64,000 nucleotides of DNA, from the NCBI GenBank assembly GCA_963710435.1, contig CAVQAE010000009.1, positions 21,159-85,158 on the forward strand, given 5' to 3'. A program made the translations under genes and the position numbers. This DNA comes from an uncultured Gammaproteobacteria bacterium. Its GTDB lineage: Bacteria > Pseudomonadota > Gammaproteobacteria > Steroidobacterales > Steroidobacteraceae. Positions 34,446 through 64,000 of the stretch are shown here, piece by piece (within the stretch, counting starts at the first letter, position 1; each line of letters starts with the position of its first letter). Under the pieces are notes generated by a model, which saw only the letters and a list, made by a program, of their open reading frames with translations, made no database searches and was not told the origin of the DNA.

Positions 34446-34452
34446 GGGCGCG

Positions 34453-38721: not shown

Positions 38722-39591
38722 ATGCTCGATTACCACGCGGTCAAGAACTGGGACTTCGGCGAGATCGTGCATCAGTACACTACGCGGGATGTGATGCTGT
38801 ACGCCCTCGGGGTCGGCATCGGCAGCGATCCGTTGCACGAGGGTCAGCTGCGCTTCGTCTACGAGAAGGACCTGCAGACCGTGCCGAGCATGGCCTCGGT
38901 GCTCGGCAGCCCCGGTTTTTGGTGGAAGGATCCGCGTACGGGGGCGGACTCGGTCAAGCTCGTGCACGGCGAGCAACATCTGCAGCTCTTGAAGCCGTTA
39001 CCGACCGCGGCCACGGTGCTTGCCCGCAACCGGGTACTCTCGATCACGGACAAAGGCCCCGGCAAGGGGGCCATCGCGGTGATTCGGCGCGAGCTCATCG
39101 ATCAAGCGAGCGGTGATGCGCTGGCGCAATTGACCAATGTCACTTTTCTGCGGGGCGATGGCGGCTACAGCGCGTCGTCGGGCTCGAGCGATCCGGCTCC
39201 GCCGCCGTTGCCCGCCGTACCCGATCGTGCGCCCGACATCGAGGTCGACCTCGGAAGCCTCGCCCAGCAGGCGCTGATCTATCGCTTGAGCGGCGATTAC
39301 AACGTGCTGCATGCCGACCCCGCGGTGGCGCGGGCCGCCGGCTTCTCCCGTCCGATCCTGCATGGACTCTGCACCTATGGCATGGCGGCACACGCGCTCC
39401 TGAGCACGGTCTGCGACTACGAGGCGGGGGCGATCCGCCGCTTGGCGGTGCGCTTCACCGCCCCGGTCTACCCGGGGGAGAGCGTGCGCTTCCAACTGTG
39501 GCGCGCGGCAGCAGGGTCGCTGCACTTACGGGCGCGGGTCGAAGCGCGCGATGCGGTGGTGCTGAATAACGGCATCGTGGAGCTCGCCTGA
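38722..39591 (+). CDS. MaoC-like (R)-specific enoyl-CoA hydratase, double hot-dog
   Basis: The 289-aa product has two hot-dog halves. The second half carries a hydratase-2-like motif, YRLSGDYNVLHADP. Confidence 0.8.
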   Translation: MLDYHAVKNWDFGEIVHQYTTRDVMLYALGVGIGSDPLHEGQLRFVYEKDLQTVPSMASVLGSPGFWWKDPRTGADSVKLVHGEQHLQLLKPLPTAATVLARNRVLSITDKGPGKGAIAVIRRELIDQASGDALAQLTNVTFLRGDGGYSASSGSSDPAPPPLPAVPDRAPDIEVDLGSLAQQALIYRLSGDYNVLHADPAVARAAGFSRPILHGLCTYGMAAHALLSTVCDYEAGAIRRLAVRFTAPVYPGESVRFQLWRAAAGSLHLRARVEARDAVVLNNGIVELA

Positions 39592-39733: not shown

Positions 39734-39759
39734 CTCACCTTGGCTTGGACGGGATCACC

Positions 39760-40626
39760 ATGGCCAAAAGCGGCTCGACCAAAAACCTCGCGGCGGAGGT
39801 CAGCGGGCCGCGCTCCCTGACCCGCGTGCTCGGGCTCTTCGACGCCTTGGCGAAGTCGGCGAACGGACTCACGTTGGCGGAACTCAACACGGTGCTCGAG
39901 TCGCCGAAGAGCAGCTTGCTGAATTTATTGCGTCCGCTCGTCGCCGATGGCTATCTCAATCATGACAACGGTCGCTACCGGCTCGGGCCGACCATTTTCC
40001 GCCTGGCTGCGAACATCGTCTCGGTGTGGAATTTCTCGAATTTGGTCCGTCCGTATCTCGAGGAGTTGGCGCGGCGCTCGCACGAGTCGGTCTATATCGG
40101 TGTCCTCGACCGGGTCGCCAAGGTGATCACCTATGTGGACAGCATCGATAGTCCGCACTCCGTGCGCTACTCGGTTCCGGTTGGTGCGGTGCGGCCGCTT
40201 TACTGCACGGCCGCCGGCCGCGTTCTGCTCGCCTTCGCAGATGAGCAATTTCAAGAGGAGTATCTGCGCTCGACCAAGCTCGAGGCGCGCACCGAGCGGA
40301 CCATCAGCACCCGCAAGGCCCTGCGCGCGGAGCTCGACAAGGTCGTCAAGACCCGCTTGTCCGTGAGCATCGGCGAGATGTTTCCGGAATCCGCGGCGGT
40401 GTCAGCACCGATTTTCGGAGCCAATGGCAAGATCGTGGCCGCGATGGCCGTGGGTGGACCGTCCGAGCGGCTGCAAAGCCGGCTGGCGGAGCTCAAGCTC
40501 ATCATGGCCGACGTCGCGACGCGCGCTTCGGGCATCACGGCGCGCAAGGTCAACGGCGATCAGATCGGCACCGACCCGGTCGTGAACGCAGCCGGCCGGT
40601 CGGGCGCCGCCTCCTCACGGCTCTGA
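39760..40626 (+). CDS. IclR family transcriptional regulator
   Basis: It has an N-terminal wHTH SLTRVLGLFDALAKSANGLTLAELNTVLESPKSSLLNLLRPLVADGYL and a C-terminal IclR effector domain. I chose the in-frame ATG 39760. Confidence 0.85.
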   Translation: MAKSGSTKNLAAEVSGPRSLTRVLGLFDALAKSANGLTLAELNTVLESPKSSLLNLLRPLVADGYLNHDNGRYRLGPTIFRLAANIVSVWNFSNLVRPYLEELARRSHESVYIGVLDRVAKVITYVDSIDSPHSVRYSVPVGAVRPLYCTAAGRVLLAFADEQFQEEYLRSTKLEARTERTISTRKALRAELDKVVKTRLSVSIGEMFPESAAVSAPIFGANGKIVAAMAVGGPSERLQSRLAELKLIMADVATRASGITARKVNGDQIGTDPVVNAAGRSGAASSRL

Positions 40627-43413: not shown

Positions 43414-45138
43414 ATGCAGGACTGGGACGAAAGCTATGACTTCGTGATTGTCGGCAGCGGTGGCGCCTCCATGTGCGCGGCCCTGGTCGCGAGCTCGCTC
43501 GGCAGAAAACCCCTCATCATCGAGAAGTTGGACAAAGTGGGCGGCTCGACGGGATTCTCGGGAGGCGTCTGGTGGATCCCCAACAATCCCGTGATGAAGC
43601 GCGCGGGTGTCGCGGACTCTTACGAGCGCGCCCGCCAGTACCTCGACGCGGTCGCCAGCTATCACGGGGCCGGAAGCTCGGACGCGCGGCGCACGGCGTT
43701 TCTCAAGACCGGCCCGGAGATGGTCGAGTTTCTCGAGCGTGCGGGCATGGTCTTTAAGTACGCCGACGGCTGGTCGGACTACTACGATACGCTGCCGGGC
43801 GGCGAGCCCCGCGGCCGCTCGCTGGTGGCCGCGCTCTTTGATATCAATGAGCTCGGCGAATGGAAAAGCCGCCTGTCCATGTATCCGGGCGTGCACATGC
43901 CGATGGGCTCGGAGGACTTTCCAATCCTGTTTCTCGCCAAGCGCACCTGGGCCGGCAAGCGCATGGCGCTGAAGCTCGCTTGGCGCATGCTCTACGCGAA
44001 ACTCACCGGCAAGGACCTGCGGGCGAACGGCGCCGCGATCCAGGGCCGCATGCTGCAAATCGCGCTGCGCGAGCAGCTGCCGATCTGGACTCGCGCCCCG
44101 GTCGTCGATCTCATCGTCAACCAAGGTCGCGTCGAGGGCGTGCTCGTGATGCGCGAGGGCCGCAAGCTCCGCGTGCAAGCGCGCGATGGCGTGCTCATCA
44201 ACTCCGGCGGCTTCTCGCGAAGTCAGGAAATGCGCGAGGAGTTTCAGGCGCGCCCGAACCCTTGGCGCTGGACCAACGCCAACCCCGGCGACACCGGTGA
44301 AATGATTCAGGCGGCAATGCGCCTCGGCGCGGCGGTTGATTGCATGAATGAGGCCTGGTGGGTGATTACCTCACTCGGTCCGGGTGAGTCGCTGCCCGAG
44401 GGAGCGGTGGCGGCGGACGGCACCGCAATACCCTTCATGCATCATCTCGATTTGTCACTGCCTTACTCGATCATGGTCGACCAGCAGGGGCAGCGGTATT
44501 GCGACGAGGCGGGCGCCTACATGGAGATCGGGCAACGCATGTATCGGCGGCATTCTGAAACCGGCAAGGCGGTGCCGAGCTGGGTGATCATGGACAGCCG
44601 GCAGCGGCAATACTACCCGTGGGGTACCGCGGCGCCGGGACAAGTGCCGGAGAAGTGGCTTCAAAGCGGCTATCTCAAGCGGGCGGATGATCTGGCCTCG
44701 CTCGCCGCCCAATGCGGCATCGATGCCGCGGGTTTGGCCGGCACGGTCGAGCGCTACAATGGCTTCTGCCGCGCCGGGAAAGACGAGGACTTCGGGCGCG
44801 GCGGGCGAGCGTTCGATCGCGCGCACGGCGATCCGACCGTGAAGCCCAACCCGAGCTTAGGTCCCATCGAACGTCCGCCGTTTTACGCCGTCGCCATGTA
44901 CCCGGGCGATGTGGGCACGGCGGGCGGCGTCGTCACCGACGAATTTGGCCGCGTGTTGCGTGCCGACGGCTCGGTCATCGACGGGCTGTATGCGACGGGC
45001 AACTCGACGGCGTCGGTCATGGGACGCTGTTATCCGGGAGCGGGCGCGAGCATCGCCGCATCGTTCGTCTTTGGCTATATCGCCGCGCATCATGCGGCGC
45101 AGCCGCAGAGCAAAGCATCGGTCGGGAGAGCGGCATGA
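43414..45138 (+). CDS. FAD-dependent dehydrogenase, 3-ketosteroid-delta1-dehydrogenase (KstD)/fumarate-reductase-flavoprotein-like
   Basis: Motifs are YDFVIVGSGGASMCAALVAS...IIEKLDKVGGSTGFSGGVWWIPNN and a C-terminal GLYATGNSTASVMGRCYPGAGASIAASFVFGY. Confidence 0.75.
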   Translation: MQDWDESYDFVIVGSGGASMCAALVASSLGRKPLIIEKLDKVGGSTGFSGGVWWIPNNPVMKRAGVADSYERARQYLDAVASYHGAGSSDARRTAFLKTGPEMVEFLERAGMVFKYADGWSDYYDTLPGGEPRGRSLVAALFDINELGEWKSRLSMYPGVHMPMGSEDFPILFLAKRTWAGKRMALKLAWRMLYAKLTGKDLRANGAAIQGRMLQIALREQLPIWTRAPVVDLIVNQGRVEGVLVMREGRKLRVQARDGVLINSGGFSRSQEMREEFQARPNPWRWTNANPGDTGEMIQAAMRLGAAVDCMNEAWWVITSLGPGESLPEGAVAADGTAIPFMHHLDLSLPYSIMVDQQGQRYCDEAGAYMEIGQRMYRRHSETGKAVPSWVIMDSRQRQYYPWGTAAPGQVPEKWLQSGYLKRADDLASLAAQCGIDAAGLAGTVERYNGFCRAGKDEDFGRGGRAFDRAHGDPTVKPNPSLGPIERPPFYAVAMYPGDVGTAGGVVTDEFGRVLRADGSVIDGLYATGNSTASVMGRCYPGAGASIAASFVFGYIAAHHAAQPQSKASVGRAA

Positions 45139-46121
45139 GCCCAGAGTACACCCCTTCGCGCGCCACGCTGGTCGAGCTGTACCGCAAGATGGACCTCATC
45201 AAGCAAAACGATGAGCGCTTCCGCGCGGTGATCAAGTCAGGCAGGATCGTCGCGCCCTATTACTCCCCCAGAGGACAAGAAGTCATCCCTTCGGCCGTAT
45301 CGGTGAACCTCACGCAAGAGGACTACATCTGCACGATCTATCGCGGCATTCACGACATGTTGGCGAAGGGCGTGCCCGTAAAGCTCCTGTGGGCCGAGAT
45401 TGCCGGCAAGGTGACCGGGACCTGCAAGGGTAAGGGCGGTCCGATGCACGTCACGCACCCGGCGAGCGGCGTCATGGTCACTACTGGTATCGTCGGCAGC
45501 TCGATGCCCATCGCCAACGGTCTCGCACTGGCGTCCCAGGTACGCGGCGAGAAACGCGTGACCGTCGCGTATTTCGGTGACGGCGCCTCGAACATCGGCG
45601 CCTTCCATGAATCGCTCAATATGGCGGCGGTGTGGAAATTGCCGGTGGTCTTCGTATGTCAGAACAATCAGTATGGCGAGCACACCCGCTACGAGATAAC
45701 CACCGCCGCACGGCAGATCGCCGATCGGGCCGCGGGTTACCAGATGCCGGGCGTGCGTGTCGATGGGAACGATCCGCTCGCCATGTACGCGGCCGCCAGG
45801 CAAGCGATCGAGCGCGCGCGCGCCGGCGAGGGGCCGACGCTCATCGAGGCCATGACCTTCCGCTTCTTCGGTCACGTGTTCGGCGACGCGGACGCGTACA
45901 TGCGCCCGGGCGAAAAGGAGACGGCGATGGCGAGCGACCCCGTGCCCGCCTTCCGCGGCTGGCTGATCGAACACGGTCATGCCACGGAGAGTGAGCTCAA
46001 GCAGATCGAAGCGGCCATCGCGCGTGAGCTCGACGAGGCCGTCGACTTCGCCTTGAATAGCGGCGAACCCGAGTTGGCCGAGTTGCAACGCGATGTGTTT
46101 GCGGCGGAGGTGCCGGGATGA
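45135..46121 (+). CDS. TPP-dependent 2-oxoacid/acetoin dehydrogenase E1 alpha subunit
   Basis: It has the TPP motif YFGDGASNIGAFHESLNMAAVWKLPVVFVCQNNQYG. Its ATG 45135 overlaps the upstream stop (ATGA). Confidence 0.85.
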   Translation: MSPEYTPSRATLVELYRKMDLIKQNDERFRAVIKSGRIVAPYYSPRGQEVIPSAVSVNLTQEDYICTIYRGIHDMLAKGVPVKLLWAEIAGKVTGTCKGKGGPMHVTHPASGVMVTTGIVGSSMPIANGLALASQVRGEKRVTVAYFGDGASNIGAFHESLNMAAVWKLPVVFVCQNNQYGEHTRYEITTAARQIADRAAGYQMPGVRVDGNDPLAMYAAARQAIERARAGEGPTLIEAMTFRFFGHVFGDADAYMRPGEKETAMASDPVPAFRGWLIEHGHATESELKQIEAAIARELDEAVDFALNSGEPELAELQRDVFAAEVPG

Positions 46122-47119
46122 GCGCGGTCAAGTCTGAAAGCTCGAAGCTCAACACCATTCAGGCGATCAACCTGGCGCTCGATGAGGCCTTGGGGCTTGA
46201 TCCGAGCGTCATTCTGCTCGGCGAGGATATCGGCGATGAGGAGGAGGGAGGCGTCGTCGGCGTGACGCGGGGCCTGTCGAGCAAGTATGGCAAGAGTCGT
46301 GTGCGCACCACGCCGATCTCGGAGCAAGCCATCATCGGCGCAGCGCTCGGTGCGGCCATTGTCGGCATGCGGCCGGTGGCCGAGATCATGTTGATGAACT
46401 TCACCGCCGTGGCGATGGACATGATCGTGAACCACGCGGCGAAGCTGCGTTTTATGTCGGGCGGACAGACCCATGCACCGCTCACGATTCGAACCATGAC
46501 GGGCGCCGGATTCGGCACCGGCGGTCAGCACGCCGACTATCTCGAGGCCTGGTTCGCGCATACCGCGGGCATCAAGGTGGTCGCGCCATCCTCGCCGGCG
46601 GATGCATATGGGCTCATGCTGTCCTGCATCTTCGATGATGATCCGTGCCTTTTTATCGAGAACATGCCGAGCTATTGGACGCCGGGTCCGGCGCCCGCGC
46701 TCGGCAAGCGCACACCGCTGGGGCAAGCACACATCCTGCGCTCCGGTAAGGACCTCACGCTCGTGAGCTACAGCCGTACGGTGAGCGATTGCATGGCGGT
46801 CGCCGAGAAGCTCGCGGCCGAAGGCATCCAGGCCGAGGTGATTGATCTTCGGACCATTGCACCGTTCGATGCGCAGACCATCATCGCCTCGGTCGCGCGC
46901 ACCCGTCGCGCGGTCATCGTGCACGAGGCGGTGAAGCCCTTCGGCGTGGGCGCGGAAATCGCCTCGCGGATCAACGAGGAGCTGTTCGGCCAACTTGCCG
47001 CGCCGGTGCAGCGAGTCGGCGCGTATCACTGCGCCGTGCCATTTTCCAAGAAGCTGGAAACCGAATATGCACCGACCCACGCGCGCATTGAGGCCGCGAT
47101 GCGCGCCACCCTGAAATAG
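46118..47119 (+). CDS. 2-oxoacid/acetoin dehydrogenase E1 beta subunit
   Basis: Motifs are LLGEDIG...RVRTTPISEQAIIGAALGAAIVGMRPVAEIM and IDLRTIAPFD. It overlaps E1 alpha by 4 nt. Confidence 0.9.
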   Translation: MSAVKSESSKLNTIQAINLALDEALGLDPSVILLGEDIGDEEEGGVVGVTRGLSSKYGKSRVRTTPISEQAIIGAALGAAIVGMRPVAEIMLMNFTAVAMDMIVNHAAKLRFMSGGQTHAPLTIRTMTGAGFGTGGQHADYLEAWFAHTAGIKVVAPSSPADAYGLMLSCIFDDDPCLFIENMPSYWTPGPAPALGKRTPLGQAHILRSGKDLTLVSYSRTVSDCMAVAEKLAAEGIQAEVIDLRTIAPFDAQTIIASVARTRRAVIVHEAVKPFGVGAEIASRINEELFGQLAAPVQRVGAYHCAVPFSKKLETEYAPTHARIEAAMRATLK

Positions 47120-47145: not shown

Positions 47146-47382
47146 ATGTCAACGCAAGTGCTGTTACCCAAGATCGGCTTTAGCATGAATGAAGGTGTCT
47201 TGGCCCGTTGGCTCGTCGCGGACGGCGCCCCGGTGCAAGCCGGGCAAGCCCTGTACGAGATGGAAAGCGATAAATCCGTCCAGGAAGTGGAGGCCCCCGC
47301 GTCGGGGACCCTGCGGATCATCGCGGCGGAGGGCGAGACCTACGCCGTCGGTGCCGTGCTCGGCGAGATCGTCGCGGCGTAA
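47146..47382 (+). CDS. Free-standing lipoyl (biotin/lipoyl attachment) domain protein
   Basis: The 78-aa product has the lipoyl-lysine motif in LYEMESDKSVQEVEAPASGTL. It ends with a clean stop, with no catalytic E2 domain downstream. Confidence 0.8.
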   Translation: MSTQVLLPKIGFSMNEGVLARWLVADGAPVQAGQALYEMESDKSVQEVEAPASGTLRIIAAEGETYAVGAVLGEIVAA

Positions 47383-47408
47383 CTCGATCTGCGACGCTGC
47401 GAACACCG

Positions 47409-54766: not shown

Positions 54767-55777
54767 CTATACCGTCGAGGCGTAGAGCACCCAGTCAAGG
54801 ACCGGTTCGGGTTCCTTCGGCTCCGCGCGCTCCGCCCCCGTGCGCACATGCAATTTCAAGAGCATGCCACGCTCGAGCGGCAGTGCCTCGAGGACGTCGA
54901 ATGCCGTGCTGAGCCGATCCTGCTCGAAGACGGGGCCGATGTGGTCACAGCGTTCCCACGCCAGCACAGTGACGAGATCCGGCAGCGCACGGGTGAGCTG
55001 CGCAAAGGCGATTCCAATGGTATGGCCGCCATAGACCAGGCGCTGTCCGGTGTGCGACGCCGTGCCATCCAAGTGAGCCATCGCCATGTTGGTGGTCAAA
55101 CGCACGAGTTCCGGTGCGCACGTGACGGTGTCGCGCGCCGCGATCCGGACGTGCTCACCGGCTTGAGGCCGCGGGGCCGGCGGCAGCGAGCGCGGGAAAG
55201 CGCCGATGTCCCAGGCCGGGACGGACGCGAGGATTTCTTCGCGCGCAGGATTCGCACCCAGCTCGAGGATGTCGGCGTCCGCGCCCGCGGATGCCGCAGG
55301 GTGCGTGCGGCAGGGAATCATGGGAAAGCGCCAGGCGGTCATGACCTCGGCGCCCTGTTGATTGACGGTGCGCATCTCGAGCGCGACCACCCCAGTGGGT
55401 GCGCGCCCCGGCTTCGATTGGTTGCGGCGGGCGCCAACCACGCGGGTGCGGGTGTAGAGCGTGTCGCCGAGGAACGTGGGCCGCTTGAGCTGCACGCCGC
55501 GATAGGCGAGGTTGGCTTTGACCCGCTGCGAGGCCCAGGTGCTCTGACCGATGGCGATGTTGATCGCGAGCAAGGGATGCGCCAGTGGCGTGGGCGCACC
55601 CGTCACGCGCGCGGCGGCCGCATGATCGAGCGGCAAGCGCATGCGATCGCCCGTGAGTGCCTGGTACCAGGCCGCATGGGCGGTGGTGAGCGTGATGCCG
55701 GGCGAGTCGAACTCGATACCGGGTTCGAGATCTTCGAAGCTGGGCCCTTCAACGACCCGATGGAGCGGCTCGTTCAT
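54767..55777 (-). CDS. MaoC-like acyl dehydratase, double hot-dog (mesaconyl-CoA-hydratase-like)
   Basis: The 336-aa product has FEDLEPGIEFDSPGITLTTAHAAWYQALTGDR and a second hot-dog half. It overlaps the upstream GMC gene by 4 nt. Confidence 0.65.
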   Translation of the reverse strand: MNEPLHRVVEGPSFEDLEPGIEFDSPGITLTTAHAAWYQALTGDRMRLPLDHAAAARVTGAPTPLAHPLLAINIAIGQSTWASQRVKANLAYRGVQLKRPTFLGDTLYTRTRVVGARRNQSKPGRAPTGVVALEMRTVNQQGAEVMTAWRFPMIPCRTHPAASAGADADILELGANPAREEILASVPAWDIGAFPRSLPPAPRPQAGEHVRIAARDTVTCAPELVRLTTNMAMAHLDGTASHTGQRLVYGGHTIGIAFAQLTRALPDLVTVLAWERCDHIGPVFEQDRLSTAFDVLEALPLERGMLLKLHVRTGAERAEPKEPEPVLDWVLYASTV

Positions 55778-57378
55778 CGGTTATCCTCCAGGATCAGATC
55801 GGCGCCGCGCGCCGCGGCAGCCATGACCGGCGCGTTGGTATTGCCCGACACCAGTGTGGGGAACGAAGACAGATCGACGACTCGCAGCGCCTGCACACCG
55901 CGCACGCGCAAGCGCGCATCGAGCACCGCGCGCGCATCGACGCCCATGCGGCAGGTTCCGGCGGCGTGATACCCCGCCTGACCCTTTTGCTTGAACGCCT
56001 CGAGAATTTGCGCATCGCTCTGCACGCCGGCGCCCGGCGTCGTTTCTTCACCGATGAACGGCGCCAGGGCGGGCTGCGACATCCAGCGCCGCATCCAGCG
56101 CAGCAGCCCCACCGCGGTGCGGCAGTCGGCCTCGGCGGAGAGATAGTTCGGACGGATCAGCGGCAACTCCAGGGGATTCGCCGAGCGCGCCATGACGCTG
56201 CCGTGACTCTCCGGCCGCAGCGGGTAGCCGAATACCTGCATGCCGGGAAAGTGCTCGAACGCGAACTCCTGCGCGCTGAAGTCGAGCGAATAGGGGGCCA
56301 TCATGATTTGCGCGTCGGGACGATTGAGCATGCCGTCGGTGCGAATGAAGCCGCCGACGTCATAGGAGCCTGCGGCCATCTCGCCGCCGCGGGTCAACAG
56401 GTAGCGCGCCGTGTTGAATAGCAGCGGGAGCCCCGAAAAGGCGCGATTGAGCCCGCGACCGCGACGCAGCCGGTATTGCAGAAACAGGAGCAGGTGCTCG
56501 CGCATGTTCTGCCCGACGTCGGGACTGTCGACCGCAACGTCGATGCCGAGCGAGCGCAGGTGTCCGGCGGGGCCGATCCCGGAGAGCTGCAGCAAATGGG
56601 GGGAGTTGAGTCCGCCGGCGGACACGATGACCTCGCGTCGCGCGCGAAACTCTAACGCGCCGTCGCGTTGGGTCATGACGCCCACCGCGCGCCGGTCTTC
56701 GAGGGCCACCCGCGTCACGGTCGTGTCGGTGAGAACTCTGAGATTGGAGCGACGCCGAGCCGGCGTCAGAAACGCCGTGGCCGCGCTTTGCCGGCGTCCG
56801 TTCTTGATATTCCAGCTGAGGTAGGCGATGCCCTCCTGTTCGGGCCGGTTAAGATCCTGCTTGACCGGCAGACCCATCGCCTCGCCGGCCGCGAGCACCG
56901 CATCCCCCAGGGGGTAATGCGCCGAACGCGGGGTGATGCCGAGCGGGCCGCCGCCGCCGCGCACCTCGTCGGCACCGAGGGAATGATCCTCCATGCGGCG
57001 GAAGTAGGGCGATAGGCTCTGCCAGCCCCAGCCACTCAAACCGGCGCGTTCCCAAGCGTCATAATCCTCGGGCTGGCCTCGCATGTAGATCATGCCGTTG
57101 ATGGAGCTGGAGCCGCCGAGCATCTTGCCGCGCGCCCAATACTGGGGTCGATTACCGGTCGAAGGCTCGGGCTCCGTGGCGAAAATCCAGGCGTGGGTCG
57201 GGTCTGAGAGGAGCTTGCCGAAGCCCTTGGGCAGATGGATGAGGGGATTGCGGTCGTCGGGCCCGGCTTCGATCAGCAACACGCTGTGGCGGCTGTCCTC
57301 GCTCAGCCGCGCGGCGAGCACGCACCCGGCGGAGCCGGCGCCGACGATGATGTAGTCGAAGGTTTCAAGGTCGCTCAT
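55774..57378 (-). CDS. GMC family oxidoreductase (choline/alcohol dehydrogenase-like)
   Basis: Motifs are FDYIIVGAGSAGCVLAARLSED and GGSSSINGMIY, plus a C-terminal active-site region. Confidence 0.9.
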   Translation of the reverse strand: MSDLETFDYIIVGAGSAGCVLAARLSEDSRHSVLLIEAGPDDRNPLIHLPKGFGKLLSDPTHAWIFATEPEPSTGNRPQYWARGKMLGGSSSINGMIYMRGQPEDYDAWERAGLSGWGWQSLSPYFRRMEDHSLGADEVRGGGGPLGITPRSAHYPLGDAVLAAGEAMGLPVKQDLNRPEQEGIAYLSWNIKNGRRQSAATAFLTPARRRSNLRVLTDTTVTRVALEDRRAVGVMTQRDGALEFRARREVIVSAGGLNSPHLLQLSGIGPAGHLRSLGIDVAVDSPDVGQNMREHLLLFLQYRLRRGRGLNRAFSGLPLLFNTARYLLTRGGEMAAGSYDVGGFIRTDGMLNRPDAQIMMAPYSLDFSAQEFAFEHFPGMQVFGYPLRPESHGSVMARSANPLELPLIRPNYLSAEADCRTAVGLLRWMRRWMSQPALAPFIGEETTPGAGVQSDAQILEAFKQKGQAGYHAAGTCRMGVDARAVLDARLRVRGVQALRVVDLSSFPTLVSGNTNAPVMAAAARGADLILEDNR

Positions 57379-57444
57379 GCAGGCGCCATCGTCTCGTAGT
57401 CAAATCTGCCAACGGACAAGCATTTCCGTATAATGCGATAATGT

Positions 57445-57467
57445 GAACAGCGTACGCAAATGTGAAT
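57445..57467. promoter_or_regulatory. Composite operator GAAC-N3-GTAC-N8-GAAT
   Basis: The sequence is GAACAGCGTACGCAAATGTGAAT, preceded by TATAAT at 57428-57433, in the divergent region between the GMC and AMP-ligase genes. Confidence 0.5.
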
Positions 57468-57502: not shown

Positions 57503-59017
57503 ATGCAGGATGGCCGCGCCGCCCGGTTGAGCGACATACCGCGCTACTGGGCACGCCAGACCCGGGCGCGCGCCGCCTTGTGGCAACGTGCTGAGCCCGT
57601 CTCGTTCAGCGAGCTCGCGACGGCAATCGACAGCGCGCGGGGCTTGCTCGTGCGAAACGGCGTCGGGCCCGGCGATCGCGTGATGATCGTCGCCGAGAAT
57701 TCGTTGGCCGAAGTGGCCTTGCTGTTCGCTGCGGGCGAGCTGGGCGCATGGCCCGTATTGACCAATGCGCGCTTGAGCGGGCGCGAGGTGGAATCGATCC
57801 TTACTCACTGCCGGCCGCGGCTTTCCGTGTTCACGAGCGCGGATTCCGCCGAGGCGGCGGTGCACGCGAGCGAGTCCCGCGCGAGCGAGGTGACGCTACC
57901 GGGCCTTGGCAGGGTGGCGGTCAGCGACAGGGATCGGTCGACGCCCGCCGAGCAGGGTGCTCACGCCGCGCAGGTGGCGGCGCTCATTTATACCTCGGGC
58001 ACGACCGGTTCGCCGAAAGGGGTCATGCTGACGCACGCGGGACTGCTGCACTTCTGTCGGGTCTCCGCGAGCTTGCGCCGGATTGTCCCCGCCGACGTGG
58101 TTTACGGCGCGTTGCCGCTGTCGCACATCTTCGGCTTCGTCACCATCCTGCTGAGCAGTCTCTACGGCGGCGCGAGCGTGTATCTCGAGCCACGCTTCAC
58201 CCCCGCGGCGGCCTGTGCGGCCTTCGCCGAGCGCGGCATTTCATTGCTCCAAGGCGTGCCGACGCTGTTCACGCGGCTGCTGAGCCACCTGGCGGAGCAG
58301 GATCGCGCGCCTGCGTTTCCGCGCCTGCGGTATCTCTACATCGGGGGCGGCGCGCTCGATCTGACGCTCAAGGAGCGCATCGAACGGGCGTTCGGACTGC
58401 CCGCCCATCACGGCTACGGCATGACGGAGTATGCCGGCTCGATGTGCGTCACCCGCATCGAGCGTCCGCGAGGCGATGCCTCCTGCGGCGAGTTGAATCC
58501 GGATTGCGAGATCCGGATCCTCGGGGCGAACGGCCCGCTGCCCGAGGGGCAGACCGGCGAGATCGAGGTGCGCGGCCCGGGCACCATGCTCGGCTACTAT
58601 CGGGATCCCGAGCTCACGCGCGCAGTGCTCCGGCCCGACGGCTGGCTCGCCACCGGCGATCGGGGACGGCTCGATGCGAGCGGTCATCTGTTCGTCGTGG
58701 GCCGCACCCGGGACCTCATCAAGCGCGCGGGTTTCAGCGTCTACCCGATCGAGATCGAGACCGAGCTCAATCGGCACCCCGGGGTCAAGCTGGCGGCGGT
58801 CGTCGGCTGGCCCGATGCCAGCGGCGAGGAACGGATCGTGGCCTTTGTCGAGCCGCGCGCGGGGGCGCAAGTCGATCCGCAGGAGTTGCTGGACTACGCG
58901 GCCGAGCGGCTTGCCCCGTACAAGCGGCCGGTTCGCGTGATCGTGCTCGAGTCGCTGCCGCTCACCGCCAACGGCAAGGTGCGCAAGGCGGAGCTGCGCG
59001 CCGGACTTGCCCGATAG
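57503..59017 (+). CDS. AMP-forming acyl-CoA synthetase / adenylating enzyme (ANL family)
   Basis: Motifs are LIYTSGTTGSPKGV, GYGMTE, WLATGDRG and a C-terminal NGKVRKAELR. I chose the in-frame ATG 57503. Confidence 0.85.
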   Translation: MQDGRAARLSDIPRYWARQTRARAALWQRAEPVSFSELATAIDSARGLLVRNGVGPGDRVMIVAENSLAEVALLFAAGELGAWPVLTNARLSGREVESILTHCRPRLSVFTSADSAEAAVHASESRASEVTLPGLGRVAVSDRDRSTPAEQGAHAAQVAALIYTSGTTGSPKGVMLTHAGLLHFCRVSASLRRIVPADVVYGALPLSHIFGFVTILLSSLYGGASVYLEPRFTPAAACAAFAERGISLLQGVPTLFTRLLSHLAEQDRAPAFPRLRYLYIGGGALDLTLKERIERAFGLPAHHGYGMTEYAGSMCVTRIERPRGDASCGELNPDCEIRILGANGPLPEGQTGEIEVRGPGTMLGYYRDPELTRAVLRPDGWLATGDRGRLDASGHLFVVGRTRDLIKRAGFSVYPIEIETELNRHPGVKLAAVVGWPDASGEERIVAFVEPRAGAQVDPQELLDYAAERLAPYKRPVRVIVLESLPLTANGKVRKAELRAGLAR

Positions 59018-59030
59018 ACCCGAGGGTCGC

Positions 59031-59053
59031 GTTCGAATATGCTAACAGCGTTC
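59031..59053. promoter_or_regulatory. Composite operator GTTC-N8-TAAC-N3-GTTC
   Basis: The sequence is GTTCGAATATGCTAACAGCGTTC, 53 bp upstream of the luxE-like ATG. Confidence 0.5.
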
Positions 59054-59105
59054 TATTTCGTCGGGCAGCCAAGTCGACGCACTTGAGCCGCCGGGGGGTC
59101 AGCTC

Positions 59106-60479
59106 ATGTCAGCATCCACGATCACGACGCCGGCGCGCGCCGAGCTCCTCGACTTCATCGACGATCCCGACCATGCCTACGATCAGAAGCCGGCCGATCT
59201 CGCGGCGCTGCAGCTCGCGGCGGCGCAGGAGTTGTTTGCCGTGCGTCGAGAGCAGATTCCGCTTTTGGCGAGGCGCGCGGAGCAAGCCGCCATTGCCCGC
59301 ATCGGCGCATTCGACGACCTCGTGCCGCTGCTGTTCGCGCACACGGTGTACAAGTCCTACCCCCAGTCCTTCGTCGATCAGAATCGCTGGGACCGGATGC
59401 TGCAGTGGCTGCAGACTTTGTCCGTCGCGAAAGTCACCGACGTCGAGGTGTCGAACGTCAAGGATGTCGATGACTGGCTGGAAGCCTTGTGGGCGGCGGG
59501 TCATGCGGTGCTGGCCACCAGCGGCAGCAGCGGCAAATGCTCATTTCTCAACCACACGATGGGTGATCGGGCACTCAAGACGGAGCATTTCAAGTACACG
59601 GTAGGTTGGCCACAGATTCGCTCGAGCCCAGACCGGGAACTCTTCTGGCTCGGCCCCGCGTCGGGTCGCAACAGCGCCGTCGAGGCGTTCCTGAGCAATG
59701 CCGAGAACTGGGGCCGTCCCGGACATGTCCACGCCCTCACCGGTCAGCCGCTCTTGATTTCAGAGGTGAGCCGCATGGCGGCGCTGCGCAAGAGGATGGC
59801 GGATGGCACGGCGACCCCGAGTGAGATCGAGGCGTACGAGCTCGAGGGCGCCCGCAAGGCCGCCGCGGCTCGGGCGGAGTTCGAGCGCCTCGTGGACCTC
59901 GTGCTGGATCATCGGCACGAGCCGATCTACATCACGGGTATGTGGTCGCAGCACATGCTGATCATGCAACGCGCTCGCGAGCGCGGCATTGGCGATGGGG
60001 AGTTTCATCCGAGGAGCGTCGTGGGCGCCGGCGGCGGGGTCAAGGGGATCTCGCTGCCGCCCGACTACAAGGAGCAGGTGACGAGGTTTTATGCGCAGGC
60101 CATCCGCCCCTATAGCTATGGGATGACCGAGCTTGCGCTGCTGTTGCCGCGATGTGAGGCCGAGCGCTATCACATTCCGCCGGCGCTCATCGCGCTGCCG
60201 CTCGATGCACCCGGCGAGCGGCTGCTGACGCGCGAGGACGGGTCGAACAGCATCGTGGAGGGGCGCTTCGGCTTCGTCGATCTGGTGTACGAGGGCCGCT
60301 GGGGCGGAATCATCACCGGCGATAAAGTCACCATGGATCTCAGTGGCCGCTGTCCTTGTGGACGCTTTGGAAATACCCTGTTCGATAACATCACCCGCTT
60401 CGCGCAGATCGGGCAAAACGATCACATCGGTTGCGCGGGCACCATCGACGCCTACATTCGGGGAGCGGTCGACTCATGA
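59106..60479 (+). CDS. LuxE-like acyl-protein synthetase
   Basis: Several segments parallel Vibrio LuxE as I recall it. VPLLFAHTVYKSYP matches IPVFPTSVFKYKK. LATSGSSGKCSF matches YTSSGTSGVKSH. GAGGGVKG matches ITGGGWKS. YGMTELALLLPRCEAERYHIPP matches FNQVELNTCFFE...HVPP. A Cys near the C-terminus (HIGCAGTID) matches KGCALSMA. Confidence 0.7.
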   Translation: MSASTITTPARAELLDFIDDPDHAYDQKPADLAALQLAAAQELFAVRREQIPLLARRAEQAAIARIGAFDDLVPLLFAHTVYKSYPQSFVDQNRWDRMLQWLQTLSVAKVTDVEVSNVKDVDDWLEALWAAGHAVLATSGSSGKCSFLNHTMGDRALKTEHFKYTVGWPQIRSSPDRELFWLGPASGRNSAVEAFLSNAENWGRPGHVHALTGQPLLISEVSRMAALRKRMADGTATPSEIEAYELEGARKAAAARAEFERLVDLVLDHRHEPIYITGMWSQHMLIMQRARERGIGDGEFHPRSVVGAGGGVKGISLPPDYKEQVTRFYAQAIRPYSYGMTELALLLPRCEAERYHIPPALIALPLDAPGERLLTREDGSNSIVEGRFGFVDLVYEGRWGGIITGDKVTMDLSGRCPCGRFGNTLFDNITRFAQIGQNDHIGCAGTIDAYIRGAVDS

Positions 60480-61864
60480 GTGCACGTCCTCAGACCATCG
60501 CGGTTCCGCTCTGCCACGTCATCAAGGGCGAAACGGTCAGCGGCGCCGCTCACACCTATGGCCCCGCCGACGCTCCCTTTACGACTCCCCGGCTCGATCT
60601 CGATCCGCTCGTCTGGCCACGCAGTGTCGCGGGACCTGCCTTTGATGTGCCGATCGCCGAGATCATGGACGTGCTGGTGGCCACCGGCGAGTGGCTGACG
60701 GCCGACCCGCAGGGGTTGCTGGCCGAGGCCCTGGCGTACACCGTGCGCTCGAGCCCCTTGCCCGCCGGGGTGCTGGAGCGTTCCTACGCATCGCTCGGCA
60801 AGCCATTCAATCGGCGCAGTCTCGAGTTCCAGATCCAGAATGAGTTGGGCGGAGCCGATGTCCTCGACGGCTGGCGCGAGATCGCGGTACCGAGCGGACG
60901 CAAGGTGCGGGTGCGGGCCTTTCCGCCGCGACTGATTCACATCATTGCCGGCAATGCGCCCGGCGTGGCGGCGGTGTCGGTGATCCGCGGCGCCCTCACC
61001 AAGGGCGTTCATCTCCTCAAGATTCCATCGAACGACCTGTTCACCGCGACTGCCATTCTGCGCGCGATGGCGGCGGTGGCCCCGGGGCATCCCCTCACTC
61101 GGTCCTTCTCGGCCGTCTACTGGCGCGGCGGTGATGCGCGTGTGGAGGGAACTCTGTTCCGCGCACAATTCTTCGACAAGCTCGTCGCCTGGGGCGGGGA
61201 GTCGGCGCTGCGCAGCGCCAAGAACTATATTGGGCCGGGCTTTGAGCTGGTGGCCTTTGATCCGAAGACCTCGATATCGCTATTGGGCTGCGAGATTTTC
61301 AGCTCGGCGGCGACGCTAGCGGACGCGGCCGAACGGGCGGCGACCGATGCGACGATCTTGAATCAGCAGGCCTGCTCCTCGAGCCGTATCCAGTTCATCG
61401 AGGGGAGTCTCGAGCAAATCGATCGCTACTGTGCGCTCTTGCAGCAGCGTCTGGGCGTCGAGCGCGAGACCGCCTCCGCGGTGGGACGGCCGGTCGCGAC
61501 CGAGCTACGCGAGGAGATTGAAGGCCTGCGCGACCTGGCGCCCGATTATCGGGTGTGGGGCGAGTGCGAAGGGCGTGGGCTCGTGATTCGCTCGGCCGAG
61601 CCCGTGGACTTTTATCCCGACGGCAAGATCGTCAACGTCGTGCCGGTCAAGGATTTGTCGGACGCCGTGCGCCACGTCAATGTGGCGACCCAGACCGTTG
61701 GCGTCTTCCCGGCATCGCGCAAACAAGCGCTGCGCAATGCGCTCGCCTCCGCGGGTGCACAGCGCGTGGTCGAGCTCGGCAGCGCCGTGTCGGTCGAGAT
61801 GGGCATCCCGCACGATGGATTCTTGCCGCTGGCCCGCTTCGTGCGCTGGGTCAACGACGAATAG
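60476..61864 (+). CDS. LuxC-like acyl-CoA/acyl-protein reductase (aldehyde-forming)
   Basis: HIIAGNAPGVAAVSVIRGALTKGVHLLKIPSNDLFTATAI...LTRSFSAVYW...LVAWGGESA...NQQACSS parallels LuxC HVLAGNVPLSGIMSILRAILTK...ITRSLSVIYW...VIVAWGG...DQRACFS. Its ATG 60476 overlaps the luxE-like stop (ATGA). Confidence 0.7.
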   Translation: MSARPQTIAVPLCHVIKGETVSGAAHTYGPADAPFTTPRLDLDPLVWPRSVAGPAFDVPIAEIMDVLVATGEWLTADPQGLLAEALAYTVRSSPLPAGVLERSYASLGKPFNRRSLEFQIQNELGGADVLDGWREIAVPSGRKVRVRAFPPRLIHIIAGNAPGVAAVSVIRGALTKGVHLLKIPSNDLFTATAILRAMAAVAPGHPLTRSFSAVYWRGGDARVEGTLFRAQFFDKLVAWGGESALRSAKNYIGPGFELVAFDPKTSISLLGCEIFSSAATLADAAERAATDATILNQQACSSSRIQFIEGSLEQIDRYCALLQQRLGVERETASAVGRPVATELREEIEGLRDLAPDYRVWGECEGRGLVIRSAEPVDFYPDGKIVNVVPVKDLSDAVRHVNVATQTVGVFPASRKQALRNALASAGAQRVVELGSAVSVEMGIPHDGFLPLARFVRWVNDE

Positions 61865-61906
61865 CGCACACGCCCGAGGCGGCTGCGCCGCGCGGTTGAG
61901 CTGTGC

Positions 61907-62956
61907 TCAGGCCTCGAGTGAGGCCAAGTCGATCACGAATCGATATTTCACATCGTTACCCAGCACGCGCTCGTAGGCCTCGTGCACCTGCTGCATCGCG
62001 ATACATTCGATGTCCGCGACGATGCCGTGCGTGCCGCAGAAGTCGAGCATTTCCTGCGTCTCCGGCAGGCCGCCGATCATCGAACTCGCGAGCCGCCGGC
62101 GCCGCGCGGCAAGCACCATCGCCGAAATCGCGAGGGGCTGCGCCGCCATCCCCATTTGCAGGAGCGTCCCGTCGCGCGCCAAGAGGGCGAGGTAGGCATT
62201 GACGTCATGCGCCGCGGACACGGTATCGAGGATGAGATCGAAACTGCCGGCCTGTCGTCGCAGCTGGTTGGCATCGCTGGATAGCACCACCTCATGCGCA
62301 CCGAGTTGTCGGACATCGTCGAATTTGCCCGGGGAACTGGTGAAGCCGACCACGTGGGCCCCCATGGCGCGCGCCAGTTTCACCCCCACGTGACCGAGGC
62401 CGCCGATGCCGACCACGCCGATCTTCATCCCCGGGGCCGCCTGCCAATGCCGCAACGGCGAATACATGGTGATGCCGGCGCAGAGGAGCGGCGCCACGGC
62501 GGCCGGGTCGAGCCGCGGCGGGACCCGCAAGGCGAAGCGCTCATCGACCACATAATTGTTGGAATAGCCGCCGTGGGTGGGACGTTTGCTGCCGCGCTCG
62601 AGACCGGCGTAAGTCGGCGTCGGATGCTCATCGCAGAAGTGCTCCTCACCCGCCTCGCAAGGACTGCAGCGGCGGCATGAATCCACCAGGCACCCGATGG
62701 CGGCTCGATCCCCGATCTTGAATTTGCTGACCTTCGCGCCGATGCGTGCGACGCGACCGACGATCTCGTGGCCGGGCACGACCGGAAACCGCGTCATGTG
62801 CCAGTCATCGTTGACGTAGTGGATGTCGGAGTGGCAAATGCCACAATGCGTCAGATCGAGCACCACATCGTGCTCGCCCGGGTCGCGTCGCTCGAACTCG
62901 AACGGGGCGAGGCGTCCCTTCGCTTCGCGAGCGGCCCAGCCGTGAGCGTTGATCAT
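61907..62956 (-). CDS. NAD(P)-dependent alcohol dehydrogenase, cinnamyl-alcohol-dehydrogenase (CAD/YjgB)-like
   Basis: Motifs are CGICHSDIHYV, GHEIVGRV and VVGIGGLGHVGV. I chose the start at ATG 62956 (MINAHGWAA). Confidence 0.85.
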   Translation of the reverse strand: MINAHGWAAREAKGRLAPFEFERRDPGEHDVVLDLTHCGICHSDIHYVNDDWHMTRFPVVPGHEIVGRVARIGAKVSKFKIGDRAAIGCLVDSCRRCSPCEAGEEHFCDEHPTPTYAGLERGSKRPTHGGYSNNYVVDERFALRVPPRLDPAAVAPLLCAGITMYSPLRHWQAAPGMKIGVVGIGGLGHVGVKLARAMGAHVVGFTSSPGKFDDVRQLGAHEVVLSSDANQLRRQAGSFDLILDTVSAAHDVNAYLALLARDGTLLQMGMAAQPLAISAMVLAARRRRLASSMIGGLPETQEMLDFCGTHGIVADIECIAMQQVHEAYERVLGNDVKYRFVIDLASLEA

Positions 62957-63051
62957 TGCACGGAACTCCATTTGGCCATGCCGGCCAGCAACTGCGCGCG
63001 CGGCCACTATGCGGCAGATTTGACACGCCGAACCCGCGCATTAAGATACTC

Positions 63052-63062
63052 GAACAGTGTTC
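63052..63062. promoter_or_regulatory. Operator GAACAGTGTTC (perfect)
   Basis: It lies in the divergent region between the CAD-like ADH (62956) and the QOR-like gene (63081), and is followed by A7. Confidence 0.55.
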
Positions 63063-63080: not shown

Positions 63081-64000
63081 GTGCGCGTCTATCGATGGCG
63101 GCAATTCGGCGACATGGCCGGGCTGAAGCTCGAGACGGCCGAGGCGTCCCGACCGGGGCCCACCGAGGTCAAGCTGCGGGTCCGGGCCAATTCATTGAAT
63201 CATCGCGACCTGCTGGTCGCCCGCGGCATGCCGCTGGGCGGACCGCTGCCGTCGGGGCTCGTACCGCTCTCGGATGGCGCCGGCGAGGTCCTCGAGGTCG
63301 GATCGCAAGTCACGCGCTTTCGCGCCGGGGACCGGGCGGTTGCGACGTTTCGTCAGGGATGGATCGACGGCGAGATGCGCGCGGAGCAGGTGAGTGGCGA
63401 TCTCGGTGGCCTCAAGGATGGCGTGCTGGCCGATGAAGTGGTGCTGAGTGAGGAGGGCCTCGTCAGCCTCCCCGCCCATTTAGGCTTCGAGGAGGCGGCC
63501 ACACTGCCGTGCGCCGCCGTCACCGCTTGGAATGCCGTCATCGTCAAAGGCGCGGTCAAGCCCGGCGACACGGTGCTCGTGCAAGGGACTGGCGGAGTCG
63601 CCATCTTTGCCTTGCAATTCGCGAAACTGGCGGGTGCAGAAGTGCTGGCGACCACGAGCTCGCCCGCCAAGGCCGCGCGGCTCGCCGAGCTCGGGGCCGA
63701 TGCCACCGTCGATCGACACGTCCATGCCGACTGGGATGCGGAGGTGCTGCGGCTGACGGGCGGGCGTGGCGTCGACTTGACGGTGGAGCTTGGCGGGGCG
63801 GGGACGATCAACCGCTCGCTCGCCGCGACGCGCATCGGCGGACGCTTGTGCATCGTCGGACTCTTGACGACGCCGACGGACGAGACGGCTTCCATGTTCA
63901 TGACCGCGTTCATGCGCAACGTGACCATCGCCTCGGTGCATACCGGCAGCCGTACGTCCTTCGAGGCGATGAATCGGGCGATCGTCCAAGCGCGCCTCCG
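63081..64000 (+). CDS. Quinone-oxidoreductase-like MDR dehydrogenase (partial; runs off the right edge)
   Basis: It is not in the track because there is no stop inside the window. My translation is VRVYRWRQFGDMAGLKLETAEASRPGPTEVKLRVRANSLNHRDLL...VLVQGTGGVAIFALQFAKLAGAEVLATTSS... The start is GTG 63081, with GTG 63057 as an alternative. The minus ORFs 63353..63928 and 63480..63989 are its antisense shadows. Confidence 0.75.
   Translation, partial: MRVYRWRQFGDMAGLKLETAEASRPGPTEVKLRVRANSLNHRDLLVARGMPLGGPLPSGLVPLSDGAGEVLEVGSQVTRFRAGDRAVATFRQGWIDGEMRAEQVSGDLGGLKDGVLADEVVLSEEGLVSLPAHLGFEEAATLPCAAVTAWNAVIVKGAVKPGDTVLVQGTGGVAIFALQFAKLAGAEVLATTSSPAKAARLAELGADATVDRHVHADWDAEVLRLTGGRGVDLTVELGGAGTINRSLAATRIGGRLCIVGLLTTPTDETASMFMTAFMRNVTIASVHTGSRTSFEAMNRAIVQARL

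Follow-up and report, generated by a model that had tools for sequence, protein, structure and literature searches.

Gene content of the locus

The 64,000-nucleotide stretch of DNA analysed here (the window) comes from an uncultured gammaproteobacterium of the Steroidobacteraceae (GenBank contig CAVQAE010000009.1). It contains two overlapping genes, at 59106-60479 and 60476-61864, whose predicted products are relatives of LuxE and LuxC, the acyl-protein synthetase and the aldehyde-forming reductase of bioluminescence operons. Judged by sequence, the two proteins probably form a two-subunit carboxylic acid reductase of the LuxCE type, which would use ATP and NADPH to convert an acid to an aldehyde. 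The pair lies among the following genes:

55774..57378, minus strand: GMC-family (choline-dehydrogenase-like) flavoprotein oxidoreductase (Pfam GMC_oxred_N 4.8e-55, GMC_oxred_C 6.3e-34)
57503..59017, plus strand: class I adenylate-forming acyl-CoA ligase (Pfam PF00501, AMP-binding, 2.8e-76; PF13193, AMP-binding_C, 3.9e-18)
59106..60479, plus strand: putative LuxE-like adenylating acyl-protein synthetase, 457 aa, of an unannotated family (profile-level LuxE homology, conserved residues)
60476..61864, plus strand: LuxC-family acyl-thioester reductase, 462 aa (Pfam PF05893, 1.5e-47)
61907..62956, minus strand: Zn-dependent medium-chain alcohol dehydrogenase (ADH) of the Ahr/YjgB/cinnamyl-ADH type (Pfam ADH_N 3.8e-24, ADH_zinc_N 1e-22)
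63081..64000, plus strand: quinone-oxidoreductase-like (QOR-like) medium-chain reductase (GTG start at 63081; open frame of 306 codons, gene cut by the window end)

The four open reading frames (ORFs) from the ligase to the ADH were described in an earlier, sequence-only reading of this DNA (the original prediction), and all are present at the positions given there. The same is true of the translational overlap that it reported. The stop codon of the LuxE-like gene and the start codon of the LuxC-like gene share the tetranucleotide ATGA at 60476-60479, as can be read directly in the sequence. The ADH gene converges on the LuxC-like gene, and the QOR-like gene that was said to follow it is indeed found, although it runs off the window end. 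In a 98%-identical copy of the locus on an ENA metagenome contig (L083), where the arrangement of the window is kept, the QOR-like orthologue comprises 341 aa with ADH_N/ADH_zinc_N domains.

The top NCBIfam match of the ligase is the long-chain-fatty-acid-CoA ligase PRK06187, with 340 bits, under the cutoff of 476. Its longest ORF begins with GTG at 57443, and ATG 57503 is favoured as the start because of a promoter-like site at 57406-57434. The best NCBIfam match of the ADH by far is the Ahr aldehyde reductase (NF047908, 2.8e-95, 319 bits). The equivalog cutoff of 470 is not reached, and the enzyme is a candidate aldehyde reductase by similarity. The GMC gene is divergent from the ligase gene and heads a minus-strand operon (MaoC, enoyl-CoA hydratase (ECH), amidohydrolase_2, ECH). 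Its product scores 539.5 bits against the NCBIfam choline dehydrogenase subfamily, under the cutoff of 605.

The original prediction also held that luciferase and acyl-transferase genes are missing beside the pair, and this was confirmed. In the 12 kb around the pair, Pfam searches found neither a luxA/luxB pair nor luxD. The sole Bac_luciferase-family genes in the window encode two F420-type luciferase-like monooxygenase (LLM) oxidoreductases at 11852-12778 and 29891-30976 (TIGR03620 and TIGR03619, both over cutoff). They are located 28-47 kb from the pair and are unrelated to LuxAB function.

The LuxC-like protein

The assignment of the downstream protein to LuxC, for which the original prediction had proposed a Pfam search, is secure at the family level. 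The protein scores 162.9 bits with Pfam LuxC (PF05893, E = 1.5e-47), for which the gathering cutoff is 21. Among solved structures, the nearest relative is Photobacterium phosphoreum LuxC (7xc6_A, 3.4e-29), with the QQAC block in register. The motifs AGNAP (aa 158-162), AWGG (aa 238-241) and QQACSS (aa 297-302, nt 61364-61381) align with LLAGNVP, SWGG and DQQACFST of 7xc6_A, and the catalytic cysteine is kept as C300 (QQAC300SS). Against the NCBIfam equivalog for bioluminescence LuxC (NF052251), the protein scores 144.9 bits and does not reach the cutoff of 750. By these scores, it is a member of the LuxC family, but not an orthologue of the LuxC of lux operons.

The LuxE-like protein: family placement

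The upstream protein has no match in Pfam, be it to LuxE (PF04443) or to PF00501, and none in NCBIfam, even at E = 10. A phmmer search against the PDB returned noise only (Ski-like proteins at E = 0.45), and a profile of its close relatives (profile A1) found nothing there. Among the PDB sequence searches tried, LuxE was reached only with profile A2, which comprises 39 diverse members of the family with 24-65% identity. The top match of this profile was 7xc6_E, the LuxE chain in the cryo-EM structure of LuxC with LuxE, at 3.1e-11, compared to 4.1e-7 for the best PaaK (PaaK2). Weak matches to Pfam LuxE were obtained for 12 of the 39 members themselves (best 3.5e-6). An hhalign comparison of the family with LuxE gave a probability of 96.6% and E = 5.7e-10, for a thin template of four LuxE fragments that does not cover the tail. 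The protein is therefore best described, at the profile level, as belonging to a putative sister family of LuxE that lies outside Pfam LuxE. The LuxE assignment of the original prediction thus stands with regard to homology and to the counterparts of functional residues (K313, R431 and C443, see below), but not with regard to the PF04443 search, which was negative.

The family is large. A word-indexed search with the LuxE-like protein collected 915 relatives; 'hypothetical protein' is the only name given to those that carry one, and precomputed Pfam domains are absent throughout. The exhaustive HMMER search yielded 842 clusters (at 50% identity) at E <= 1e-3, and 533 at E <= 1e-10. In the PGAP-annotated plasmids examined, the LuxE-like gene product is again a 'hypothetical protein', next to an 'acyl-CoA reductase, GO: bioluminescence'. 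No paper on this 'hypothetical' family was found in the open-access literature, where absence is not proof.

The LuxE-like protein: fold and functional residues

The AlphaFold2 model of the LuxE-like protein has a mean predicted local distance difference test (pLDDT) score of 81 and a predicted template modelling (pTM) score of 0.81, with a disordered tail at residues 433-457 (pLDDT < 50). Foldseek searches with the model returned PaaK-family adenylating enzymes on top (AjiA1, ClxA, BT_0428, PaaK1/2 and NatL2, E ~1e-9, template modelling (TM) score ~0.52), and the predicted fold is that of an ANL/PaaK-type adenylating enzyme. A LuxE chain was absent among the 50 matches listed, though 7xc6_E is in the PDB. 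As far as the model goes, the structure search did not show the relationship to LuxE.

The residues expected of a LuxE are nevertheless in place. According to the structural work on LuxE (PMC9157457), the enzyme is without the C-terminal subdomain, unlike other adenylate-forming enzymes. It has its catalytic Lys238 on the loop GGGWKTKQKQ, uses Arg355 as an active-site residue, and carries Cys364 in the flexible C-terminal motif TRxxKGCxLS. All four hallmarks have counterparts in the LuxE-like protein. After the conserved D406, only about 50 residues remain, which account for two strands and the disordered tail, and the PaaK-type C-terminal subdomain is absent. A GGGVK loop with K313 (nt 60030-60047) aligns with GGGWK238 of LuxE. 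In a MAFFT alignment with a LuxE fragment from Photorhabdus, R431 falls opposite R355 and C443 opposite C364; the tail part of this alignment is without statistical support of its own. C443 is part of the sequence HIGCAG (nt 60423-60440), inside the disordered tail. The P-loop TSGSSGK is found at aa 138-144 (nt 59517-59537), and YGMTE at aa 338-342. The motifs quoted in the original prediction (the TSGSSG loop and C-terminal cysteine here, and the AGNxP, AWGG and QQACSS blocks in the LuxC-like protein) were all recovered.

The adenylation machinery (P-loop, YGMTE, K313 and R431) is conserved throughout the family. C443 is near-invariant (37 of the 39 members of profile A2, the exceptions named being two C-terminally truncated members and P0208), and the tail motif DDK(I)xC(A/S) is also kept in 37 of the 39. 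Taken at face value, the sequence comparison suggests that the LuxE-like protein very probably works like LuxE.

The protein also has features of its own. It is about 84 residues longer than LuxE, with an extra helical insertion at approximately residues 218-268, and its family has invariant C350, H356, C416 and C418 (C...RYH...CxCGR), a Cys3/His cluster that may be a structural zinc (metal) site. At the positions aligned with C350, C416 and C418, the LuxE sequences compared have no cysteine, while H356 aligns with a LuxE histidine. Because these three cysteines are not found there, and because the Pfam LuxE model failed, the mechanism may differ in detail from that of LuxE.

Conservation of the pair

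The genomic context of the family was surveyed in 78 loci from species-representative genomes. The loci were fetched with profile A1, which biases the set towards close relatives, and synteny was counted by tblastn. They span Alpha-, Beta- and Gammaproteobacteria as well as Nocardioides, Nocardia and Streptomyces. Enough sequence to place LuxC was available for 73 of them: 55 have a LuxC gene immediately downstream in the same orientation, and 12 more have it elsewhere within 10 kb. The ATGA overlap recurs in 61 of the 78 loci. The pairing is kept even where identity to the window protein has dropped to 27-29%, as on a JGI contig, Mycobacterium avium plasmid pP7a, Pseudonocardia plasmid pLS1-1, Caballeronia p1 and Sphingobium plasmids. 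Across loci, the identity of the LuxE-like protein to its window counterpart rises and falls with that of the LuxC protein (r = 0.90, n = 68), a correlation to which shared phylogeny contributes. The closest match in species-representative genomes is 69% identical. The conserved unit is the two-gene LuxE-like/LuxC pair, which is inherited as a unit and occurs widely among non-luminous soil bacteria.

The survey, which had been suggested in the original prediction, thus bears out the pair, but not the larger module with an extra adenylating ligase and an ADH. Of 81 related loci, 5 have a homologue of the window ligase (at least 40% identity) in the neighbourhood, and 1 has a homologue of the window ADH at the same threshold. 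Ligase and ADH are local additions rather than conserved partners, and the surroundings of the pair are otherwise highly variable between loci. The set is repeated on Caballeronia p1, where LuxE-like and LuxC genes are directly followed by an ADH gene (49% identity of the product to the window ADH) and then by a convergent AMP-binding gene. The product of the latter is 32% identical to the window ligase over 298 aligned residues, or about 60% of the length.

A variation of the pair is seen on a Paraburkholderia sprentiae plasmid (L091, 3119-8248), where a single LuxC gene precedes two paralogous LuxE-like genes, whose products share 41% and 40% identity with the window protein; an oxidoreductase gene lies between the two. 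The paralogues may represent two acid specificities that feed one reductase.

Regulation and the surrounding island

A palindrome GAAC-N3-GTTC with AT-rich flanks recurs in the window. The pattern GAACRNYGTTY, with up to 1 mismatch, has 45 matches, compared to 21.1 +/- 6.7 in shuffled sequences. Of 26 distinct sites, 13 fall into the non-coding 8.7% of the window (binomial P = 6e-8). Copies are present upstream of most transcription units of the island (4301, 4346, 11796, 13684, 33163, 39711, 43343, 48783, 57445, 59043 and 63052); the one at 11796 precedes the first LLM gene (11852-12778). Three copies, at 57445, 59043 and 63052, frame the module:

57406..57434, plus strand: sigma-70-like promoter CTGCCA-17-TATAAT of the ligase/LuxE-like/LuxC unit (10/12 consensus positions; consensus match only)
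57445..57455: operator GAACAGCGTAC, 10 bp past the -10 hexamer
59043..59053: operator TAACAGCGTTC, 53 bp ahead of the start codon of the LuxE-like gene
63020..63062, plus strand: promoter-like TTGACA-16-TAAGAT (63020-63047), then the perfect operator GAACAGTGTTC (63052-63062), between the divergent ADH and QOR-like genes

The operator at 63052 sits 4 bp downstream of the promoter-like -10 hexamer. The location of this copy and of the one at 57445, just past putative -10 hexamers, has the geometry expected for a repressor. The original prediction had assigned operators at 57445 and 59031 to the ligase and luxE-like genes. The sites at 57445 and 59043 are real and belong to an enriched class, but 59031 points to the AT-rich sequence that flanks the core at 59043 on the left. 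An IclR gene (39745-40626) has an operator copy 34 bp upstream, and it may encode an autoregulated repressor that binds the operator; we regard it as a candidate.

The same operator is shared with a catabolic gene set. The gene at 43414-45138 encodes a 3-ketosteroid-delta-1-dehydrogenase (KstD) equivalog, with 854.5 bits against the NCBIfam cutoff of 789. It is accompanied by other genes of a steroid-type set for side-chain and ring degradation:

33180-35595: two acyl-CoA dehydrogenase (FadE-like ACAD) pairs
37165-37533: ChsH2-type OB-fold protein
37562-38719: Ltp-type thiolase-like protein (ChsH2-OB/Ltp-type aldolase)
38722-39591: MFE-2/MaoC hydratase

The window also contains genes for a 2,4-dienoyl-CoA-reductase-like flavoprotein, two cytochromes P450, many short-chain dehydrogenases/reductases (SDRs) and ECHs, a TonB receptor, IclR and LysR regulators, and three more CoA ligases or synthetases besides the 57503 ligase. 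This gene content is that of a catabolic island of the steroid type, or for a related alicyclic lipid. The over-represented, intergenic operator ties the module to the KstD-containing regulon, and the original prediction that the module belongs to a catabolic regulon is borne out to this extent. ParA-like ATPase and RepB/ParB partition genes lie in the middle of the window (25692-28189), so the island is probably located on a plasmid or chromid (secondary replicon). The next ORF after the partition genes (28577-29533) had no family match. A stand-alone ORF of 81 aa (47146-47390) comes right after a transketolase-like E1-beta gene (46118-47119). Judged by eye, it resembles a lipoyl/biotinyl-attachment domain with an ESDK motif, and there is no catalytic E2 domain attached.

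Neighbours of the pair in other genomes

Gene families within 10 kb of the pair were identified by tblastn with cluster representatives, and labels were checked. The most recurrent families are:

SDR: 37 loci
ECH: 29 loci
TauD-type dioxygenase: 24 loci
AMP-ligase: 22 loci
ACAD: 18 loci
CoA-transferase III: 16 loci
AraC regulator: 15 loci
ArsR/MarR double winged helix-turn-helix regulator: 15 loci
aldo-keto reductase (AKR): 14 loci
aldehyde dehydrogenase (ALDH): 14 loci

Further recurrent neighbours are thiolase-like proteins, amidohydrolase_2, P450 and NMO. The gene right after LuxC is often an SDR or AKR gene. In Sphingobium, a distantly related LuxE-like/LuxC pair has a GMC gene about 4 kb away, the product of which is 47% identical to that of the window.

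The TauD/TfdA-family Fe(II)/2-oxoglutarate dioxygenase gene adjoins the pair in 24 of 78 loci (e.g. L027, L059, L074, L078, L022, L036 and L042), and sulfotransferase or sulfatase genes are present at some loci (L002, L089). Judged by these neighbours, part of the LuxE-like family may act on lipids with sulfate or sulfonate groups. In Pseudomonas citronellolis (L001, 14380-17913), a gene with the architecture of a one-chain carboxylic acid reductase (CAR; AMP-binding, PP-binding, NAD_binding_4; 1177 aa) is located 3 kb from a LuxE-like/LuxC pair, so that putative acid-reducing systems of two kinds are neighbours there. On plasmid pLS1-1 of the ant-associated actinomycete Pseudonocardia sp. (L088, 1509-13206), genes for a type I polyketide synthase (PKS), LuxE-like, LuxC, a hypothetical protein, P450 and a major facilitator superfamily (MFS) protein all overlap. 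The occurrence beside a type I PKS in a biosynthetic cluster indicates that the LuxE-like family is not limited to catabolism. On Mycobacterium avium plasmid pP7a (L087, 5625-11595), an operon contains genes for an F420-type LLM, LuxE-like (4-bp overlap), LuxC, a phosphotransferase and an SDR. An LLM as a hidden general partner of the pair was considered and rejected: it is directly coupled in this locus only, there is one weak match (27% identity) in L076, and no other surveyed locus has an LLM near the pair.

Proposed function and alternatives

If the pair works as LuxCE does, the LuxE-like subunit would activate a carboxylate by ATP-dependent adenylation, in which the P-loop, the GGGxK-loop lysine K313 and R431 would take part, and would then shift the acyl group onto its own Cys443 on the flexible C-terminal tail. 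The tail would swing into the LuxC-like subunit and hand the acyl group to Cys300, and NADPH would reduce the thioester to the free aldehyde. The Ahr/CAD-type ADH would probably convert the aldehyde to the alcohol, and SDR or AKR neighbours could do likewise at the loci that have them. The route from acid to aldehyde to alcohol is in this sense plausible. The upstream acyl-CoA ligase, as a locally recruited enzyme, could either feed LuxC via acyl-CoA or commit the same acid to beta-oxidation. Expression of the translationally coupled pair would be repressed through the GAAC-N3-GTTC operator of the island. As this operator is shared with a steroid-type island, the substrate is probably a lipophilic (steroid- or isoprenoid-like) acid, and not myristate. 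The recurrence of carbonyl- and aldehyde-converting enzymes (SDR, AKR, ALDH) near the pair counts in favour of an acid reductase.

Several points weigh against this assignment. The LuxE-like protein itself is not matched by the Pfam LuxE model, and the three cysteines of its invariant Cys3/His cluster have no counterpart in the LuxE sequences compared. Six of the 73 loci have no LuxC gene within 10 kb, and the window ligase and ADH are not conserved partners of the pair. Moreover, a reduction that consumes ATP and NADPH is not what one would expect of a catabolic regulon. By our own estimate, based on standard potentials, the overall LuxCE reaction lies close to thermodynamic equilibrium, so that flux in the cell could run either way. 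On balance, we still consider the two-subunit acid reductase to be the probable function.

A broader proposal can be put forward only tentatively, and we would rather doubt it in its full extent. The LuxE-like protein may define a large, unrecognised family of LuxE-type synthetases, which together with LuxC would be a widespread two-component carboxylate reductase of non-luminous Proteobacteria and Actinobacteria, and a new step in the catabolism of steroid- or terpenoid-like lipids. One option for such a step would be the ATP/NADPH-driven reduction of a carboxyl group that beta-oxidation cannot attack, so that degradation could continue. The other would be the reverse reaction, a thioester-conserving oxidation of an aldehyde.

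The reverse direction deserves attention in its own right, although it is unlikely to be the main one. The pair would then act mainly as a non-hydrolytic aldehyde dehydrogenase of a catabolic route. A GMC oxidase or an ADH would make an aldehyde from a primary alcohol, and Cys300 would oxidise this aldehyde to an acyl-thioester, with NADP+ as the acceptor. The acyl group would pass to the tail cysteine of the LuxE-like protein, and from there either to CoA, which would save the ATP of the ligase reaction, or back through the acyl-AMP. The catabolic context fits this scenario: a divergent gene of the GMC alcohol oxidase type adjoins the unit, and a distant pair has a 47%-identical one nearby. 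The dominance of CoA-dependent enzymes (ECH, ACAD, CoA-transferase III) in the neighbourhoods fits as well. LuxC-type enzymes keep only the cysteine and are without the hydrolytic Glu/Asn, so that the acyl-enzyme must pass its load to a thiol (reviewed in PMC12041015), and the proximity of the reaction to equilibrium would permit either direction. However, the full adenylation machinery is conserved family-wide, which is hard to explain without selection for ATP-dependent activation. The characterised LuxCE is reductive and is reported to sequester the aldehyde from re-oxidation (PMC12041015), and 14 loci have ordinary ALDH genes as well.

It is more unlikely still that ligase, LuxE-like protein, LuxC and ADH constitute one dedicated four-enzyme pathway, which the original prediction had implied, with the ligase as a required third component that would supply substrate in the manner of LuxD. 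The genes are adjacent and have a common operator, the 98%-identical relative has the same arrangement, the distant Caballeronia locus unites LuxE-like, LuxC, ADH and AMP-binding genes, and the luxE-luxC pairs of flagellin islands (see below) also have an extra ligase. Yet, the counts of 5 and 1 among 81 loci for ligase and ADH, the highly variable neighbours of the pair, and the mere 32% identity of the Caballeronia ligase to that of the window all speak against a fixed set.

Least probable of all is that the 59106 protein is a truncated PaaK-type acyl-CoA/acyl-AMP ligase and the LuxC-like protein a stand-alone acyl-CoA reductase like TabE, with no acyl-protein intermediate or obligatory complex: the top Foldseek matches are all PaaK-family ligases, the Pfam LuxE match is absent, LuxC and its relative TabE accept acyl-CoA directly (PMC9157457; bioRxiv 10.1101/2025.08.11.669332) and a bona fide CoA ligase is encoded immediately upstream, but the sequence profile ranks LuxE above PaaK, the lysine is on a LuxE-type GGGxK loop instead of the absent PaaK C-terminal subdomain, the near-invariant cysteine in the disordered tail aligns with LuxE C364, and the gene is tightly coupled to that of LuxC at the level of translation.

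Implications

The LuxE-like partner family represents a sizeable annotation gap. With the partner named as a LuxE-type synthetase, orphan LuxC reductases become interpretable as two-component acid reductases. For biocatalysis, LuxCE-type systems are an alternative to CAR that does not require phosphopantetheinylation, and a family that occurs in steroid, terpenoid and PKS contexts probably takes bulky, non-fatty acids. For physiology, ATP/NADPH-dependent acid reduction in a KstD-containing regulon, or its reverse, would, if true, add a step to lipid/steroid catabolism. In evolutionary terms, the family points to a role of LuxE and LuxC relatives outside light production.

Comparison with known systems

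LuxCE has been characterised biochemically in bioluminescence only (PMC9157457, PMC12041015). Like the bioluminescence system, the window pair consists of two proteins, a predicted adenylating acyl-protein synthetase and a LuxC-family thioester reductase. The catalytic cysteine of LuxC is kept, as are the GGGxK-loop lysine, the arginine and the C-terminal tail cysteine of LuxE, and the ANL C-terminal subdomain is missing in both cases. In contrast to the lux operon, the window pair is not accompanied by luxA/B, luxD or luxG. The order is E then C with the ATGA overlap, the regulon is catabolic, and the carriers are non-luminous Proteobacteria and Actinobacteria. The LuxE-like protein has 457 aa, compared to 373 aa for LuxE, and differs from it by the helical insertion and the invariant Cys3/His cluster. 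It fails Pfam LuxE, and the LuxC-like protein fails the cutoff of the NCBIfam LuxC equivalog.

The original prediction considered the arrangement to be different from what LuxCE is known for. This is too strong, since orphan luxE-luxC pairs with an extra AMP-ligase, an acyl carrier protein (ACP) and FabG are present in the flagellin glycosylation islands of Aeromonas and Enterobacteriaceae, albeit by annotation only (PMC7874193, PMC4875605). For steroid or other catabolic clusters, no paper on LuxC/LuxE homologues was found in the open-access literature, where absence is not proof. The flagellin islands resemble the window in having no luciferase and an extra AMP-dependent synthetase. They differ in being biosynthetic, with ACP, FabG, glycosyltransferases and an annotated LuxE, whereas the window offers a beta-oxidation/steroid-type context, an unannotated LuxE-like protein and no ACP among its annotated genes.

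The PaaK family (PaaK1/2, AjiA1, ClxA, NatL2, BT_0428) provides the best structural matches of the model and shares the P-loop and YGxTE. PaaK enzymes have a C-terminal subdomain of about 100 aa with the catalytic lysine (Lys422 in PaaK1, PMC9157457) and release acyl-CoA. The window protein, in contrast, is without this subdomain and has a LuxE-type loop lysine and a tail cysteine. In terms of profile similarity, the LuxE-like family is less close to PaaK than to LuxE.

Type I CARs (A-PCP-R, for adenylation, peptidyl carrier protein and reductase domains, e.g. Nocardia CAR) convert acid, ATP and NADPH to aldehyde through a thioester, the same overall chemistry as proposed for the window pair. 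In a CAR, one chain combines the phosphopantetheine carrier with a reductase domain of the SDR type, whereas the window pair consists of two proteins with a cysteine tail and an ALDH-fold reductase.

Finally, TabE of the tambjamine BE-18591 pathway is a stand-alone acyl-ACP/CoA reductase of the LuxC cluster (bioRxiv 10.1101/2025.08.11.669332), and as such another LuxC-related reductase outside bioluminescence. TabE is ATP-independent and operates without a LuxE partner, in contrast to the LuxC-like protein of the window, which is translationally coupled to its LuxE-like partner.

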